A DNA stretch of 61,786 nt, filler included, from Sphacelaria rigidula (taxonomy: Eukaryota), in NCBI GenBank assembly GCA_964200075.2. It is 10 parts of 10 records of this genome, joined end to end, with 100 filler letters (N's around TTAATTAATTAA, not from the genome) between each part and the next. Parts side by side here need not be neighbours in the genome. Positions count along the whole stretch, not along the records: positions 18,568 to 24,656 come from CAXNAA020022311.1; 9 more parts are not named here. One strand, given 5' to 3'. Shown one piece after another: positions 2,845-24,656 of the stretch. The notes below the pieces were generated by a model. That model did not search any database. It was not told where the DNA came from and saw only the letters and a list, made by a program, of their open reading frames with translations. The first letter of the stretch is position 1. Every line of letters begins with the position of its first letter. A program made the translations under genes and the position numbers.

Positions 2845-4987
2845 TGACCCCGTGACATGAAATGCACTGTAATACGATACACGAAAATCGCAGGCCGACG
2901 TCACCGTAAGATAGCCAGTTGACATCGGGATTTAAAATACGTGAACGACACGCCAGAACAATGATATTCAACTCTTTCTTCAAATGTTAGGTCGCAACAC
3001 TTCTGGGGGAGTCCATCTGTTGAATAGGCATAAAATTTCACGCGAAAAATGACTTGAAAGACATGGACACCCGCCCTGGTGTTTATTCACAAAGGAGTTG
3101 ACTTCTTTGCGGCTGTTGTTGTTTGCGCCACATATACTACACAATACCATGTGTACATTTACATCACATGCTTCCTTTTACTGTAAGCGACCGGCAGTGG
3201 TGACTAGCAGACAGACGTAGTCCTCGCGCACTCACCAAGGCCATGGCTCACGTACAACAGGCAATGTTAGCAATGGAGGTATCTCCGAAAAACAATACTC
3301 TAGCTGGGCAGTGTATAAATATAATCCCGGTGGTGGGGAACTTATTAACAGCGCTTCATTGAAAGACCTCGATAATGGTAGGATTTCGAAGAAATCTGAG
3401 GTTTGTGTTGGCGGATGACGAATCATGGGATCAGGATCGTGGGATGGCGGATGACGATATAACAGGATGGTAGGGGTCACTGTGAGGAACAAAAGCGCAA
3501 CCCCACCACTCAGTCATTTTCAGTTCCCAAGCCCAAAATCATCCCACGCTCGCCAATGCTGACAAGGGCAACGAGCATTTACGTGTGAAAGACAGTCAAG
3601 CACGGTACGAGTGGTGGTTCTCGAACGTGTCCGAATCATTTCGCCCGCCCGCCGCCCTGTTACTCGAAAGAGAGTGGAACCCGGGTAGAACGGATGCTAA
3701 ATATCTTCCCCTTTTTATTTTTTATCTTCTTCATTTCCTTTTGTGGGGGTGGGGGGGGGAGGGGAGCGCTGACCAGCCCCGAAAAAAAGGGGGCGGATCA
3801 ACAACCAAGAACCGGAAGTCACCGGTTAGCCCGATAGCTAGCGTACCTACTGATGGTCGCGCTGGGCGGTGTTTGTCTGTTTTTTTCTTTTCTTGTTTTT
3901 TGTTCTTGACTAGTTTCGGTTTATTGGGTTGTGCTCTACGATTTTTCCAAGTCTTCGTCACATCTTAAAAAAATCCAAGATTCTCGAGCTCCAGTATAAA
4001 CAACCACTCGATAATTCCGATAACAACAAACAAGACGAGAGGCACAACTTTCAACTTGTGACCGACTTCCGAAAGTGTGGCCGCCGACGGTTTTGATAAA
4101 CTCAAGGTTGAACATTTCCAAGAGAAATCGCTCTCGCGAGAGAGAAGGGATTCCTGTCCTCTATGACACGATTATCTCCACCCTGGTCCGTTTCTGCTGC
4201 TCGCATACATAGCCCTTGTCCCGTGAAAAAGGGATGGGGCGTAGGGGGTGTTATGTTATAAAACACCATCATACAAGAGTATTTATGACAGGGGTGATGT
4301 TGTAGAGCGAATACGCTGGGGTGGAGTAACGGCTCGAGTACGACTTTCCATCAGAATTACGACTTGTGAAATACGAAATTTGACAACGAGTCTGATGACT
4401 GATGTCAGGAAAAGCACCATTCCGCACTTCGGGGCGCCTGGACGTGTGCATACCACCCGCCACGACGTGACCAAACTGGACTGACTTCAAAGGAATCTCA
4501 AGTGCTTTCTGTAAGACTGCTGCACTGACTGTTGTACTGGTGCACTGCCTCTACCGCGCTTCGTAGCTCTGGGAGAAAGCCACTGCAGTACATAATTGTA
4601 TTTGACTGAGATATAACAGGGGGGCCGTTCTTTTGGCCAAGCTAGATACACTCAGTACCAAGCATCGAGAGCCATTTTTGTGCGCCCACGGTAAATAGTA
4701 GGTCTACCCTGGACTTCGCTGATGCTGACACAACTGCCGTAGCGTCCGTAGCGTACATGAACGTCAGACTGAAGCTGAAAGCAATCTCCGCGACCGTAGC
4801 AGACGCTTAGTGAGTGAACCTGTAGTATTTGTCACCTACTGTTGTAATTCAGTGTACTTACTTTACTCTACACGTCCTTGAAGGCCCTCGTACCCTTGAC
4901 AAAACTCCTAACGACCAAAATCTCCCTCACGGCTAACTGCACCATGCCTCCACACCAACACACACCGCCAAACCAAAACGTACTCAC

Positions 4988-5520
4988 CCGTGATACCCTC
5001 CCATTGTAGCCAGAATCACCCTCCGCACAGCCTCATCATATATTTCCTCGGTGTCACTGACAGGGTCAAACAGATGGTCGAAGGTGAACACCCCCCCAGT
5101 ACCCCGATTCCTCTGGTTCGTTACCGCAACCTGCGCTATCGTGTTGTCTTTCCACGACCAAGCAGGCACGCCGCTGTGCCTCTCTTCCCGATCATTAGGC
5201 GGCCGTATACGCACGCAGACTTGCAAGTTGTCACCCCCCACCGCCCCCCTTCCACTACCACCGCCATCATTACCACCAAAAGAAGCTCTCGCTTGGCCGG
5301 CAGCCCGTGTCCGCGGTTGCTGCTGTACCGAGTGCTCTAGTATGGTGCTAGTTCGGCGCGCGGCCGAATTTGAACTGCTAACATTATTACTTCTCGATGT
5401 TTTGGCGGCGACGGCCGCATTTCTGGCGGCCAGGGCTGCGGCAACGGAGGTTGACGGTCGAGCAAGCCCAGTGGTTGAAGCCGAGGAAGAGACAGAACCC
5501 GGCGGGGGTATTCTTGGCAT
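4988..5520 (-). CDS. Kinesin motor protein exon 1 (kinesin-7/CENP-E-like), partial
   Basis: ATG at 5520; Ser/Ala/Gly-rich extension then LQVCVRIRP, WSWKDNTI, FTFDHLFDP, EEIYD, GYHG, ending just before the P-loop at a GTGAGT donor (4987-4982). No P-loop exon seen in the remaining ~5 kb. Subfamily is inferred. Confidence 0.9.
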
Positions 5521-6089
5521 CGTGGTGTGAGCTGGTTGCCGTTGACCGGTCGCGTGTTCTGGGTGTAGCCTATTGTGTGTAATGGGTTTTACAGTATTGT
5601 ACCATAATGTACTGACTGGAGACTACTCAACGGACTCCTCTTGAGGGCACAGATTTCTCCGACCTGCGGTCGAATGTCATCCGATCCGTGCTACTACTTT
5701 CGTTGTTTGTCCATCGTCGTTTACTTCAGACGGCCACGTGTCCATCTATCGATTAAGGCTCGTCCATAATAACTTGATGAATAGGCATCAAATATAAAGT
5801 TGATTTACTACACCTTCGGTCAACTCGAGGGAAGTTTTTTCCCTCTTCTCTGATTGTATGTTTTGTTTTGTTTTGGAGTGTGAGAAGAATTCCTCTGCTT
5901 GATTACATTGTGCAGGGTATTTTTTTTTCGGAGGTCTGATCTGTTGGTTTTGCGGTTTTACCACACCTCCGACCACCTCGGGGGGCGGGGGCGGGGGCTC
6001 GGGGGGGGGGGGGGGGGTCCTCCTTTTTTTTTTCTTTACGGGTTTTTCCTTTTGGTTTGTTTTGGTGTGAGTGTTATAAGAAGTTGCCC

Positions 6090-6189
6090 NNNNNNNNNNN
6101 NNNNNNNNNNNNNNNNNNNNNNNNNNNNNNNNNTTAATTAATTAANNNNNNNNNNNNNNNNNNNNNNNNNNNNNNNNNNNNNNNNNNNN
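6090..6189. other. Artificial contig spacer
   Basis: 44N-TTAATTAATTAA-44N. Confidence 0.99.
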
Positions 6190-18567: not shown

Positions 18568-19746
18568 CACACCCGGACAAAACCCCCCCCCCCCCCCGAA
18601 AGGGGGGGACAAACAGTTTCCCCCCCCCCCGCGGGTTGTCCCATTTCCCCCCCCCCCCCCCCCACTCCTGTGTCCGGAGCAGATGATGCTGGTTCTTGAA
18701 AGGGCGTTGGGCCTGTGTTGCGCTCGGTGGTGGGAAGGATGTACCCACGAGTTTCCCGTACTTTGTGCTTCTTGTGGATGGGTGGAGCAATCATGACACG
18801 AGTGATGGGCAGTGTGACCAAGTATCCTTGGCCATACATACACCGTACCGTTTGCATCTTATTATTTTTTTCGTTATATCGGGTGCGGGGGGGGTGTTGG
18901 GGGGTGAACGAGCCTCGGGTGATTTTCTTTCTCGACAGTGAATCACGGAGGTATTCACGAAGCTAAACGTATATCCCTGTCGAACATGTGTCGTGTGCCG
19001 GGAATACCTGTCTATTCTGACGTGGGAGGGCAAAAATAGCCGCTTGTCTCGTGAGAGGATATTTACGTCCGAGCTCGTTTCTCAGTAGGTGGTACGACAG
19101 ATGTCTCCGATGAAAACGATACGTTTGTCCTCTGTCAGCCATTCGCTGCGTAGAGAAAATACCTCGGAGACCGACACGGGCTACAGTAGTTTTCGACGGT
19201 GAAGCAGTACCGATATTGGTCAGGTTGACTGGGGTTAATCACGGGAAAGGCGACGGGTGCGAAGCTGCCCATCGCTGTCGCTAATGCCTAAGGCGCCACT
19301 TGGTTCAGTTGTGCCTATATCCATGGCTGGGCATGCGTTTTGCTGGGCATCATCCTGCGAGATACTATTAATCACGAGCGGTGTACAATACCAGTGATCA
19401 AGTGATGGTAAATTGTGCTTGATTTTTCTCCGGCGAGTCCGCCGATTCTCGGGAAAATAACGGTTCAGCGTCACCATCTTTCCAGCGACACGGTTCCATG
19501 TTAACGCCATCACGCTTATAAATATATGATTTGCTGTAGATATACTGTGTTGTTCACACTTACGAAAAGCAGCTGCGGTCGCTGTCGCTACCTTTATTCG
19601 GACGAAAAGGCGAAAGCACATCGTATGTCCGAGCGTCGACCAGAACCAAACACGAGTAGAAAGCAGACTAACACACAAAACCTCTTCTACAAACAAGCCA
19701 TAGAGCTTGCATACAAAAGTCGTCTTTCCCCTAGGCCCTCACAAAT

Positions 19747-19971
19747 TCACGCCACAACATCGGTTCGCTGTCGAGCGGACGCCACGGCGTCCGTCAGCAC
19801 TTGACCAACGGACTGCTGCAAGGCGTATAAGCTTTGCACATGGGCCAGTTGCAAAGTGGAAAGCCTCTCCTCAGCGCGCTTCGCTCGCTCCTCTACCGCT
19901 GCACAATCCTTTCGTGTTTCCGTCTGCCGTCTTTCCGCTTCCTTCAGCTCTGCTTCGTGTTGAAGCTGCAC
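19747..19971 (-). CDS. Coiled-coil protein, terminal exon (5 of 5 visible)
   Basis: TAG acceptor; VQLQHEAELKEAERRQ...RTDVVA-TGA. Confidence 0.8.
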   Translation of the reverse strand: MQLQHEAELKEAERRQTETRKDCAAVEERAKRAEERLSTLQLAHVQSLYALQQSVGQVLTDAVASARQRTDVVA

Positions 19972-20310
19972 CTACAGATATACGTCGCGGGTGGTCGACA
20001 CGGACACCGAACGAGGGGCGCGTCAAGCTATTTGCGGTTATCGTCGATCGTGCAGTGGGGTTGTATATGTCAGTTCCATGGAGACGTGAACCGTTTCGGG
20101 CGCAGGTTGCGTAGCGGCGCTGTTGACAAGATCAGGACCTCCGGCGTTGACGGCGTATATCATGTCACGCACTCCTTTGACATGGCTTTGAGTACAGACA
20201 GGCGGGAACGAGCGTAGAAATAGCTAACCAACTTCATGCACTTGCAACCGTCGATGAATCGGGTACGTGGCGGCGAATGAAGTTTTTCTGCCCACGTACG
20301 TGCCGCGTAC

Positions 20311-20421
20311 CTTGCCTGTGTTGCTGGAGTGCACTTCATTTGCAAGGTGCTTATCTCTCTCCGCCTCCTCCACCCTCTGCTGCAATCCTTCAACGGTCCT
20401 TTGGAGCACGTTTACCTCAAT
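20311..20421 (-). CDS. Coiled-coil protein exon (4 of 5 visible)
   Basis: AG/GT bounded, 111 bp, IEVNVLQRTVEGLQQRVEEAERDK...TGK. Confidence 0.75.
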
Positions 20422-20656
20422 CTACTGGATTTCACGAGAAGTGGCGACGTCAGTACTGCTGGTATTGTGCGAGTTGCCTGTCACGTAGCAATGACCCATG
20501 CGATACGCTGAACGGCGGATGCATACATGTCGAGGCGAACACGTTCGGTGACCATCGCAAAGCGTGTACGACAGACTGAAGCAAAATATATTCCAAGACA
20601 AAATGTTCGCACAAGCACGTTCCAAATGAGGACCATAACACCCCTCCCCCCCTCCA

Positions 20657-20720
20657 TGCTCCGTCTCGAAAGGGATGCGTGGTCAATGGTCAAACGACTA
20701 AGGCAAGCAACAAATGAGTC
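20657..20720 (+). repeat. 65-bp structured mini-element within a C-rich tract
   Basis: TGCTCCGTCTCGAAAGGGATGCGTGGTCAATGGTCAAACGACTAAGGCAAGCAACAAATGAGT with C-runs on both sides. Confidence 0.85.
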
Positions 20721-20924
20721 CCCCCCCCCCTCCCCCTTCCTCTCACGTTCCATTTGCCTTCCAAGTCCCCCCCGCGTGCTCTGAAATCGTCGCGCCCCTC
20801 CGCGCCGCGTTCATCATATTTCATATTTTCAGTGACCCTGAGCTTTCTTGAAATTCCCATCATCTGCGACTTGAAGGCTTTACTCTTTCGTTTCATGGCA
20901 CAATTTGACTGTCACCAACAGTAC

Positions 20925-21101
20925 CTGCAATTTGGAAGCCCTGCCATCGTGGCCACGAGCAGCCTCCCTAGCTTTCTCCAGCTCTTCTCCGTTCGCCGCG
21001 AGCTCCCGACCGAACTCCCGCAACTCGGCCGTGGAACGCAGACGGAGTTCTTCCAGCGACACCAGATGCTCGCGCGCCTGTGCCTCTTTCGCGTCTCTCA
21101 C
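20925..21101 (-). CDS. Coiled-coil protein exon (3 of 5 visible)
   Basis: CAG/GT bounded, 177 bp, VRDAKEAQAREHLVSLEELR...SKLQ. Confidence 0.8.
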
Positions 21102-21357
21102 CTGTCGATGAGTGAGTGGGTACAACCATTTTCTCGTCCGATCAGTCAAAACACGAAGATTTTCATAAAAAAAATCTTGTCCATCCCTTCCCCCCCTGCC
21201 CCCCGTGGTGTAAAGGCTTTCCCTGACCTCAGGAAGCGTGGCATGAGTTTTTGTTAAGGGAGCTCGGGTTGTGCGGTGAAGCTGGTCCTACGCTTTCCGT
21301 TTTCCCACCCAGCTCGCATCCCCGCGCAGCACCTGAAACACGTCTTTATACGGGTAC

Positions 21358-21471
21358 CTTGTGCACGGCGTCGATTCTCTCCCGGAGCTCGGCAAGTTCG
21401 AGGTCGAACTGTTTCTGAGCCTCCGCGAGCACCCGCTTCTCGGTCTGAGATATTCGCTCCTCCATCAAAAC
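21358..21471 (-). CDS. Coiled-coil protein exon (2 of 5 visible)
   Basis: CAG/GT bounded, 114 bp, VLMEERISQTEKRVLAEAQKQFDLELAELRERIDAVHK. Confidence 0.8.
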
Positions 21472-22499
21472 CTGTGCGTGGTATTTGTGCAGATTCGAAA
21501 ATTTGGAGCCGTGCTTTGAGATTTCAACATGTCTAGCCATCCATCCAGAAGGCAGTATTTTATTGTTACATATTTTGCCGCTATCTCAGAAAACTTGAAC
21601 ACGTCTGCAAAAATGCCTCACAATCAGGTTTTTGGTATCCGTGTTGCAACCCAAGTCCTCTCCGCATGCCGAGCGTTTTGGTCACCCTGATGTACGTGAA
21701 TATTCGCAAGTCCTCACCTATGGGTTACAACTCGTGAAGGGATTGATGAGTGCGAATCGTATTGATGTAAAAATGATTGCAAGGCGCTCTCACTCAAGGA
21801 CGCATCATCTCCACAAGTATGCAGCGCGCCAAGTTGAGATAGCATGCATGGACTTTGGCACCTGCTAGACCCAACACAGCTCTCTGTAGCATGCTCCACC
21901 TCTACGCGTCCTCTGAACACCCTGCAGTCACGATTATAGGGTGAACAAGCCACGCGAGGGCTTTTGGATGCAACGTCTGTGACATCCAAATTTGAGGTTG
22001 CAGCCATCCCAGTGGACACCCGTGTAATAATAACTGCAGGTCATACTCATAATTCTCACGTCTTTCTTTTGTTTGTCGCCCTTTGAACCCCACCCCTTCC
22101 TCGGGACGAGGCGGTGGTCCCAAGGGACCAACCCTTCTCTCCCCCGCTACACGCGTTGCATCTTGGTCTCGCGGGGTGGGTGAGCACTCCCGCAGCGCGT
22201 CAACTCACCTCAAACAATCTCGATTGACTACTTTGTGTACTCACCTTCTCACGCTTTCCACGGTGGAAATCAGACATTGCGAAGGAGAAAACCAACGCAT
22301 CGGGGACCGAACCCTCGTTTTCTCCACCCTACTGGCGACAGGCGGATCATTACAACACCGGGGAGCGGCACGTGTGCTTATCACACGATGAGCAGTTTTT
22401 CCCGCGCTTATCGCATGAAGGGCAATTCAAGTGTTGGGCATCATCCCGTGAAGTACACAATAGTAGCGTATACAGCCGTCGTCGAATCTCGTCGAGTAG

Positions 22500-22571
22500 T
22501 TCCTCATAGTCCAACGGTTAGGATATATGACTCTAATTCATAAGACCCGGGTTCGACTCCTGGTGAGGAAG
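22500..22571 (+). tRNA. tRNA or tRNA-derived gene with Glu-type body and CUA (amber) anticodon
   Basis: Acceptor TTCCTCA/TGAGGAA, D GTCC/GGAT, anticodon stem TATGA/TCATA with loop CT-CTA-AT, 4-nt variable loop, T stem CCGGG/CCTGG with TTCGACT, G73, T5 run at 22576-22580. Confidence 0.85.
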
Positions 22572-22634
22572 TAACTTTTTACCGTCGAACCCCGACTGTC
22601 AAACTGGTACATCATCAGGGAGTATAACGGCGGA

Positions 22635-22980
22635 GTTGTGAGTTCTTTTCCCGGCAGCCATGAAACCCTATACTTGTATTCCTAGCGGAAAGCGGAAGAG
22701 ATACGAGTAGACAAGACATCGTCGCAAGAAGTTGTGACTTTACAGCCCGATAAGCATGAAACCCTTTCCTGGTATTCCTCGGGGAAAGCGGAAGAGACAA
22801 GAGTTCATAAGACTTCATCGCAAGCCGAGCAGCGGAAATGCTCATCCGGTTGTGAGTTTAAAGCCCGATAGGCACGAAACTCTTTACTGGTATTCCTGGC
22901 GGAAAGCGAAAGAGACGAGAGTTTAGAAGACTTCATCGCAAGCCGACGAGCAGCGGGAATGCTCATCCGATGCTCATCAA
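22635..22980 (+). repeat. Three diverged tandem units of ~96-120 bp
   Basis: Units start GTTGTGA at 22635, 22731, 22849; shared core GTATTCCT..GGAAAGCG.AAGAGA..AAGAC..TCGCAAG. Confidence 0.85.
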
Positions 22981-23164
22981 CAATCTGTCAGGGGGTCACT
23001 GGGGAAGAAATGACTTCATCCCTGGAGACCGCGGACTCGTTTCTAGAATCGCGAAGGATACGGCGAAGACAAATACAAGAAAGATCACCGTGAAATAGAT
23101 TAGACAATACTTACGATGGTGGACTGACATAATACGTGGCAGTCGTACTTTTTTAGGGACATTA

Positions 23165-23412
23165 GACACTTTCTACGATAGCCCCCCCCCAAAACCAGCC
23201 AAAAGTGTCACGAAAAAAATGAGCATACAGCGCCTGATGCTTGGGTTCAGGCTGCGTGAAGCGCCTTATATTGGCAATACTGGCTAGAACGAACCCAGTC
23301 GTGAGAATTCCCAGCGACTCGTTGTGCTCGGCTTTTCCCATTTCGATTTACGTGAAGATTTCGCCTCCCAAAACCATGCACTTTTTTTGGGGGGGGTATC
23401 GTAGAAAGTGTC
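23165..23412 (+). mobile_element. Sola-like MITE, 248 bp, intronic
   Basis: TIR GACACTTTCTACGATA; TSD ATTA (23161-23164, 23413-23416). Confidence 0.85.
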
Positions 23413-23505
23413 ATTACCGGGAGTGGTGTTGTGCAGGTCATTGTCTTCAATGCAACACAGGACTGTACCGGTAAGGTAGTTGCACAATGACCAGTATACC
23501 AGCAC

Positions 23506-23838
23506 CTGCAAGCGCGCCAGCTCCTTGTGCGCCGCCTGCCGCGACATCTCCGCGCGCTGCCGCTCATGCTCTATCGCACGAGACCTCTCCTCCGCTACCC
23601 GTACGCGTGCATCGCTCTCCAACTTGACCGCCTCGGTTCGCTCCTCGTACATGCGCCTTGTTTCCTCCAAAGTCGTAGCACCGTCGCGTGCCGCGCGCGC
23701 CATGCCAGCGGTGGCCTCGTCTGCGCGCTCCGCTGTTAGACGCACCTCAGCCCGAGCTGTTTCTAGCAGAGCTGCTGCTTGCTCGGCTTCTGCAGTTGCT
23801 CGCGTTGATGCTCGTTTTGTCGCCTCGACGGCGGCGTT
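23506..23838 (-). CDS. Coiled-coil protein exon (1 of 5 visible; gene 5'-truncated)
   Basis: CAG/GT bounded, 333 bp, Ala/Glu/Arg-rich NAAVEATKRA...HKELARLQ. Confidence 0.85.
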
Positions 23839-24656
23839 CTGGGTGTAAAGCAAATATTTTTATTGAAACGTACAATAAACTGTTGCATCATTCTATTTAC
23901 TCATTTTCTGCGAAGTGTGCAGTCACTATTCAGCAGTGAGTCCATGCTTGTCAATGTAAACGTGAGTGACTTGGTTTTAATGTACAAATCTCCCTGCAGT
24001 GAAATTTCCCAAAACATTCCCAAAGAATCATATGCATTTCTCAGGGTGGGTAATGTCGGCGTCCTACATTCATTTTTGAAGGGAATATGACGTCGATCCG
24101 ACGCATGACCTATCCTAACGGTCAAAGCGTTGTCTGTTTGACCGCGAAGCAGTTCATTTGAATCCGTTTACGTCCAATGTAGCACTTTGCGTATTTGTAG
24201 TTGTTTGTGTTTGCTCCTATAGCCGTTATCCTAAAACCTTCGTGGTCGAAGAGTCAAGCCTTCGAGCGTCGGGGGTGATAATCATCTGCTGAATCGGCAC
24301 CGATCTCACCTGAAAAATGACTTCTGGACCCAAATAAACACACCTCTTGCGCTTCAAGGGTTGACTCGTTCACCACGAAGCATTCCATTTGGTTTTTCGC
24401 GTATGCCAACGCACTACTTGAATCAGTTCGCGTATCGAGTTTTTGTGAAAGACTGCTCGTGTGCAGGCAAGATCCCGAACGCGCTTCGTCGTCAAGAGTT
24501 TAACCTTGTTTTACTGCACCTGTGTATGTACGGATATATATATATATATATTACTATATATATATCCTCACCCTGTGAACCCCTCCCCTTTCTCGGGATG
24601 AGCCCGTGGTCTCAAGAGATCAACCCATCTCTCCCCCGGTACACGCCTTTCATTTT

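Follow-up and report, generated by a model that had tools for sequence, protein, structure and literature searches.

A tRNA-Glu-derived gene with a CUA anticodon in the brown alga Sphacelaria rigidula, which keeps UAG as a stop codon

Introduction

Can a nuclear tRNA gene whose anticodon matches a stop codon be kept in working order by an organism that still ends its genes with that codon? A tRNA gene with the anticodon CTA, cognate to UAG, raises this question in Sphacelaria rigidula (assembly GCA_964200075.2). To our knowledge, cognate stop-reading tRNAs of eukaryotic nuclei come mainly from lineages that are already recoded. If the gene is maintained, a multicellular alga with the standard code would provide a natural instance of the intermediate state predicted by models of codon reassignment. 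Should it turn out silent or of recent origin, it is no more than an anticodon accident of an ordinary kind. The system is readily testable, since it involves a single gene and a known codon, relatives have been sequenced, and the genome itself offers a candidate UAG junction.

The locus and its host gene

The window, the whole 61,786-nt stretch of DNA that was analysed, consists of ten unrelated contigs of ~6.09 kb with N spacers between them (the first at 6090-6189, then one every ~6.19 kb). Because it is a concatenation, genes flanking a spacer are not to be taken as neighbours. The true neighbourhood of the tRNA gene is positions 18568-24656 only (CAXNAA020022311.1). On another contig of the window, 4984-5622 on the minus strand is presumably, by motif, the first exon of a kinesin-like gene. 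The assembly comprises 244 Mb in 27,214 contigs, and genome-wide counts are lower bounds. The gene surrounding the tRNA has the following parts.

21472 to 23505, minus strand: host intron, GT-AG, phase 0, 2,034 nt, with the tRNA gene antisense inside it (exon matches)
23506 to 23838, minus strand: host LRR/coiled-coil gene, upstream exon, corresponding roughly to residues 364-472 of Ectocarpus P0006 (protein matches)
21358 to 21471, minus strand: downstream exon of the host gene (gene model)
19747 to 21101, minus strand: final three exons of the host gene, with the stop codon TGA at 19747-19749 (gene model)

The initial annotation had placed the tRNA antisense in an intron, and the exon matches agree. 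The exon beside the tRNA matched an LRR/coiled-coil protein of ~680 aa; the named hits, from Undaria, Scytosiphon, Pylaiella and Ectocarpus, are 70-78% identical. Since this protein is brown-algal, the host of the tRNA is a brown alga. The assembly contains two mitogenomes. Contig C13 has an apparently short nad11 of the brown-algal type, and contig C5 has a tRNA with a TCA anticodon and an apparently full-length nad11; C5 is likely derived from an epiphyte, for example a diatom. Despite the foreign-looking C5 in the assembly, the contig of the tRNA carries a brown-algal gene. The intron that holds the tRNA also contains, shortly after it, three diverged tandem copies of ~110-120 nt (22670-22960).

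An intact tRNA gene with a CUA anticodon

A single tRNA was called by ARAGORN in the window, at 22500-22571 on the plus strand, with the anticodon CTA. Its elements are as follows.

22500 to 22571, plus strand: tRNA gene with a Glu-derived body and CUA anticodon, 72 nt, G73 discriminator, without intron or encoded CCA (ARAGORN, Rfam, alignment, folding)
22507 to 22518, plus strand: A box of the internal Pol III promoter; U8, A14, G18 and G19 retained (sequence; invariant positions checked)
22533 to 22535, plus strand: anticodon CTA in the loop CT-CTA-AT, with U33, A37 and U38 (sequence, alignment, contigs of other runs)
22550 to 22560, plus strand: B box, GGTTCGACTCC (sequence, alignment)
22576 to 22580, plus strand: T5 run, likely the Pol III terminator, after a 4-nt spacer (sequence)

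The intact cloverleaf around CTA that had been proposed for this locus was confirmed. Rfam RF00005 matched over its full length with 61.5 bits (gathering cut-off 29, E 1.2e-12) and its alignment contains no non-standard pairs. The cloverleaf is also the minimum-energy fold (-19.6 kcal/mol), with an energy that is ordinary relative to shuffled sequences (z -1.19). U33 (22532), A37 (22536), G73 (22571), both promoter boxes and the T5 run four nucleotides past the gene, all named in the initial annotation, are present, and U1:A72, G10:U25 and the 4-nt variable loop can be read directly from the sequence. The anticodon loop has canonical geometry (C32, U33, A37, 7 nt) and carries U at position 38, where the Glu paralogs in the alignment have C. 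T runs also follow the Glu paralogs at their 3' ends. With a full cloverleaf, invariant residues, A and B boxes and 3' oligo-T, the gene has the makeup of a nuclear tRNA gene of Pol III type 2.

The anticodon in other sequencing runs

The anticodon CTA is not an assembly error. It is unchanged in contigs of four runs (X3, X4, X6 and X7) from three studies, as the initial annotation had read it. Contigs of X3 (22345-23086) and X7 (22503-22653) show no differences over the part that they cover; X3 possibly comes from the source study of the assembly and may be non-independent. Run X4, from a separate study, spans 22440-22640 in one piece with three differences, all upstream of the tRNA. It is ~1.5% divergent around the locus and identical inside the tRNA, but with ~1.1 differences expected in 72 nt this identity is uninformative on conservation. 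The single difference in X6, T22561C at a depth of 2.1, lies outside the anticodon. The 151-nt contigs of X6 and X7, which are possibly RNA runs, extend beyond the terminator and were not counted toward mature tRNA. No contig of runs X8 or X9 matched the locus, which does not prove its absence from them.

Another X4 contig, of 385 nt, matches the first 41 nt of the tRNA (22501-22541) with two differences, fewer than the Glu genes would give, and beyond that point enters a high-copy repeat. Possibly this is a second, truncated copy of the suppressor; no such copy was found in the S. rigidula assembly.

Descent from tRNA-Glu

A Glu-type body had been recognized from the start, and the nearest relatives in the genome are indeed tRNA-Glu genes. 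Searching the assembly with the tRNA returned the gene itself and five Glu genes. A Glu-type pattern with a free anticodon matched seven times, four with CTC, two with TTC and one with CTA; this sole Glu-type body with CTA is the gene at 22500-22571. It shares 60-62/72 positions with the host Glu genes (83-86% identity) and keeps the Glu body traits U1:A72, G73, U11:A24 and the absence of base 47. It does not have the YUC anticodon with C36 by which Glu isoacceptors are recognized, and is therefore Glu-derived rather than a Glu isoacceptor. An origin from tRNA-Gln was rejected, because in the alignment the D-arm of the host tRNA-Gln(CTG) differs and its first pair is G1:C72.

The initial annotation had derived CUA from CUC by one substitution. 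The divergence is greater than this: the gene differs from Glu(CUC) copies at 11 and 12 positions and from Glu(UUC) copies at 10 and 12, and it shares the UUC type of anticodon stem. Only 1-6 differences separate the four distinct Glu sequences from one another, so the CTA gene has long been evolving separately. Relative to the nearest Glu(UUC) copy (standard numbering), the changes in paired regions are C2:G71 to U2:A71, which is compensatory, G43A, which turns U27:G43 into U27:A43, and C63U, which turns G51:C63 into G51:U63. The remaining changes are U16C, U34C, C36A, C38U, A57G and U59C. Three of the ten (34, 36 and 38) fall in the anticodon loop. No pair is broken, and all 15 invariant positions checked are retained.

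Chance would seldom leave a tRNA in this condition. When 8-10 random substitutions were simulated (200,000 per setting, four transition biases), equal intactness arose with a probability of 0.0002-0.008, a figure that is biased since the gene was noticed for being intact. The structure-preserving changes may also predate the anticodon switch, having accumulated while the gene was still a Glu tRNA. A decayed Glu(CTC) copy (L051, C9699:7687-7709 plus flanks) served as a control. It has six changes from its Glu copy (L003) and, despite so few, has lost U33, T54 and two pairs.

A mutated copy of a tRNA-Glu-derived repeat had been considered equally plausible in the initial annotation. A dead pseudogene or SINE-like copy with a random anticodon is now largely refuted and very improbable, even though the genome does hold a decayed Glu copy and tRNA-like repeat heads with CTA or CTG. 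The 5' and 3' flanks of the gene each match the genome once, at their own locus, so the family of copies with shared flanks and mostly CTC anticodons that this explanation foresaw is not seen. The substitutions preserve structure, unlike those of the decayed copy, and the simulated chance of such intactness is below 1%. Repeat heads, unlike the CTA gene, are called as tRNA by neither default ARAGORN nor Rfam, and they bear no resemblance to it. A generic CTA-loop pattern matched 36 times, and the gene at 22500-22571 is the only tRNA found among these matches. The other 35 are mostly repeat heads; 30 of them were scanned, and no tRNA was called in these 30 by default ARAGORN, nor by Rfam in the 9 of them submitted to it. 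Membership of the SINE or pseudogene class was rejected on the unique flanks and the absence of broken pairs. Given the 10-12 differences, the preserved structure and the unique flanks, the gene is not a one-step mutant and not a copy of a repeat.

Two abundant repeat families, likely SINEs, carry tRNA-like heads that include B boxes and show CTA or CTG where an anticodon would lie. One repeat-head pattern matched 266 times, mostly to one family among the 100 matches listed. No tRNA was found in 24 stretches scanned from large contigs. At C20961:1793-1865 (L032) a tRNA-Lys(CTT) body carries the Glu anticodon CTC. It differs by two changes from its relative L027, does not have the T-rich 3' flank of L027, and is possibly a missense-type variant or a young pseudogene.

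The main rival to a maintained suppressor is a divergent Glu isodecoder that had remained a conserved Glu tRNA until a recent switch to CUA. The altered tRNA would then be neutral or weakly harmful, and poorly expressed or charged. We consider this a real, if smaller, possibility. Anticodon-switched copies do arise in this genome, as the Lys body with CTC illustrates, C36 has been lost, and the within-species test of conservation is powerless. Against a recent switch, two anticodon changes are needed from UUC, or one from CUC together with a UUC-type stem pair, and C38 must additionally become U. The other Glu genes of the assembly are far less divergent (1-6 differences), and the anticodon is common to contigs of three studies.

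UAG remains a stop codon

The S. rigidula genome is not recoded. TAG is the terminal stop in 11/38 histone and light-harvesting genes with shared C-termini (light-harvesting 2/8, H3 2/10, H2B 7/10, H2A 0/10), and where paralogs share the same C-terminus it interchanges with TAA and TGA. Twelve further light-harvesting matches with unshared or intron-interrupted ends were excluded. Nine of 228 Pfam matches (56 light-harvesting, 39 histone, 133 kinase) contain TAG. Eight of these were inspected, the ninth (C23324) being outside the inspected set, and on our reading all eight are intronic: in six the TAG supplies the AG of the 3' splice site, and in two it follows a donor.

The eRF1 exons found retain GTS, TATNIKS and Ser70. 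A pattern search of the assembly for the exon with YxCxxxF gave no match, and matches to PF03463 were rejected as eRF1, being Pelota-like exons. The TATNIKS motif (C4329) stands where human eRF1 has TASNIKS (PMC12153298, motif comparison). In this fragmentary assembly no tRNA with a UUA anticodon was found among 8 TTA-loop matches or among the 7 Glu-type matches.

Partial or full reassignment of UAG to Glu in nuclear genes, as in Blastocrithidia, would account for the existence of a cognate Glu-type CUA tRNA gene. It is contradicted for this sample by the exchange of TAG with TAA and TGA at paralog ends and by the intronic position of every in-match TAG inspected, and is the least probable of the readings considered; the motifs kept in the eRF1 pieces found also weigh against it. 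The caution against full reassignment in the initial annotation was therefore justified. Since UAG is still a stop, suppression, if it occurs, has to be weak or limited. A strong suppressor would come at a cost, because TAG ends 7/10 H2B genes and in 8/11 TAG-ending genes no second stop follows within 24 codons.

Relation to known stop-reading tRNAs

ARAGORN labels the tRNA 'Pyl', a label that follows the anticodon alone; the CUA anticodon is what it shares with tRNA-Pyl. That tRNA has no D-loop GG or T-loop TTC, a 6-bp anticodon stem and a 3-nt variable loop. The identification was rejected, since the S. rigidula tRNA has D-loop GG, T-loop TTC, a 5-bp anticodon stem, a 4-nt variable loop and a Glu-like body.

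Blastocrithidia has a Glu-derived CUA tRNA that decodes UAG as Glu, and both tRNAs are nuclear tRNA-Glu duplicates with CUA cognate to UAG (PMC12153298). By the same account, UAG and UAA are sense codons throughout the Blastocrithidia genome, a tRNA-Glu(UUA) partner is present and eRF1 is altered, whereas in S. rigidula TAG is an ordinary stop, a UUA tRNA was not found in the assembly and the eRF1 motifs seen are ordinary. The S. rigidula gene is thus of the Blastocrithidia kind but lacks its defining property, sense use of UAG. Reassignments of UAG alone are described in an account of the rhizarian exLh (Leu) and Iotanema spirale (Gln) (PMC5304391). There a CUA tRNA reads UAG and not UAA, as the S. 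rigidula tRNA would; in both of those organisms UAG is a sense codon (Leu or Gln), whereas in S. rigidula it is a stop and the body is of the Glu type.

A genome survey lists CUA, and not UUA, among the 116 tRNAs of Ectocarpus siliculosus (PMC7678280), the same combination as in S. rigidula. This report speaks against a recent switch. The Ectocarpus entry is a survey row that gives no body type, locus or function, and may be unrelated; in the supplements searched, 'Ectocarpus' occurs only in a tRNA-Sec tree. If the Ectocarpus tRNA is orthologous, the suppressor is old.

In public collections, a strict CUA/UUA pattern returned nothing from metagenomes, and a D-arm pattern returned 15 stretches, none with a Glu or CTA tRNA at the match. 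Viral and GTDB scans gave no matches. These collections yielded no brown-algal nuclear tRNA-Glu that could serve as a positive control, so the blanks say nothing on orthologs. No analysis of a brown-algal nuclear suppressor tRNA was found in the literature searched, which covered few subscription papers. The portion of the PlantRNA description concerned mentions suppressor genes, leaving the species unnamed (PMC3531208), and PMC4824035, as far as its accessible text goes, concerns a mitochondrial case.

A weak amber suppressor as the preferred reading

We favor the explanation that the gene is a weak amber suppressor kept by selection and probably loaded with Glu, in a genome where UAG is still a stop, and give it a probability of about 0.5. 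Pol III would transcribe the tRNA from the strand opposite the host gene, independently of it, and the transcript would be processed and gain CCA. Cytosolic GluRS could then charge it through the kept acceptor (U1:A72, G73) and the D-arm; mischarging with Gln or Lys is possible. Only a minor fraction of UAG codons would be read, chiefly where the context is leaky. The share is expected to be small because one tRNA gene competes with an apparently ordinary eRF1, and the readthrough should be UAG-specific because CUA reads UAG and not UAA (PMC5304391, same account).

Charging is the weakest step of the suppressor model. C36 and U34 are strong Glu identity elements in E. coli, and Glu identity in eukaryotes is poorly documented (PMC9976931), which makes charging with Glu uncertain, although the Glu-derived CUA tRNA of Blastocrithidia provides a precedent (PMC12153298). 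If the tRNA does suppress UAG, some brown-algal proteins carry unannotated C-terminal extensions, and the gene offers a natural eukaryotic Glu-type suppressor scaffold.

Candidate substrates for readthrough

No host gene that requires UAG readthrough was found among the genes and TAG matches inspected, a result that favors a recent switch of the anticodon. Mitochondrial import of the tRNA to read an organellar UAG was rejected, since TAG terminates none of the 38 ORFs of 90 codons or more that are listed for the brown-algal mitogenome (C13).

Retroelements were sampled as 76 stretches from 150 listed reverse-transcriptase matches, selected for long frames, RT type or upstream room. In several element groups a single in-frame stop, which is conserved, separates an upstream ORF from pol. 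This stop is TGA in at least six groups (16/16 copies in the largest, 3/3 in another), and TAG in one LTR family (L313, L342-L351), where all ten junction copies, 88-100% identical, carry it. Examples of the TGA type are the following.

L309:1664, L316:1655, L310:2594, L312, L328, L353, L369 and L382: elements with a TGA junction, Ty3/Gypsy-type

In the TAG family, the ORF before the stop matches Retrotrans_gag weakly (E 0.0026, which does not reach the curated cut-off), and the in-frame ORF after it encodes RT and RNase H. In one copy (L313) the first Met past the stop is codon 219. A 10-bp stem starts 5 nt past the stop, fully paired in 5/10 copies and with one mismatch in the other 5/10, and folding z-scores at the junction range from -4.2 to +0.2. 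The gag-UAG-pol junction is a candidate leaky context for the preferred suppressor, and a candidate substrate only. Because at least six groups use TGA at the same place, bypass of the junction would not need a cognate tRNA.

Gammaretroviruses read through UAG at gag-pol by means of near-cognate tRNAs, not a cognate suppressor. In the Candida element Tca2, with gag-UGA-pol, the junction alone did not direct readthrough (PMC2194720). The S. rigidula elements resemble the junctions of gammaretroviruses and of Tca2 in having one in-frame gag-pol stop followed by 3' RNA structure.

A more far-reaching version of the suppressor model, which we consider less probable, is that brown algae share an old, dedicated, Glu-inserting amber suppressor under the standard code, and that it decodes programmed UAG sites including gag-UAG-pol. 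If so, the tRNA would set the ratio of Gag to Gag-Pol, serving or restraining the elements, and a multicellular eukaryote would have stayed for long in the 'ambiguous intermediate' state of codon reassignment.

The tRNA could also have a non-decoding role, as a source of tRNA fragments, a Pol III boundary element or a retroelement primer, with an anticodon free to drift. Structure and promoter boxes that are kept while a protein target is not evident would fit such a role. The canonical anticodon loop geometry argues against it, as do primer-binding-site matches at chance level, and we regard it as unlikely. The primer role was rejected on those matches to the 3' end (6 versus 8 in the control, and 2 versus 1). 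The sole 18-nt match, at C2336:11249-11266 on the minus strand (L402), is complementary to the CCA-tailed 3' end in its C63 form. It has the length of a primer-binding site, but is single, lies outside any LTR context and is probably due to chance.

The junctions as a whole suggest widespread stop bypass in brown-algal retrotransposons. The six-base context past the stop is similar in most of the Ty3/Gypsy groups.
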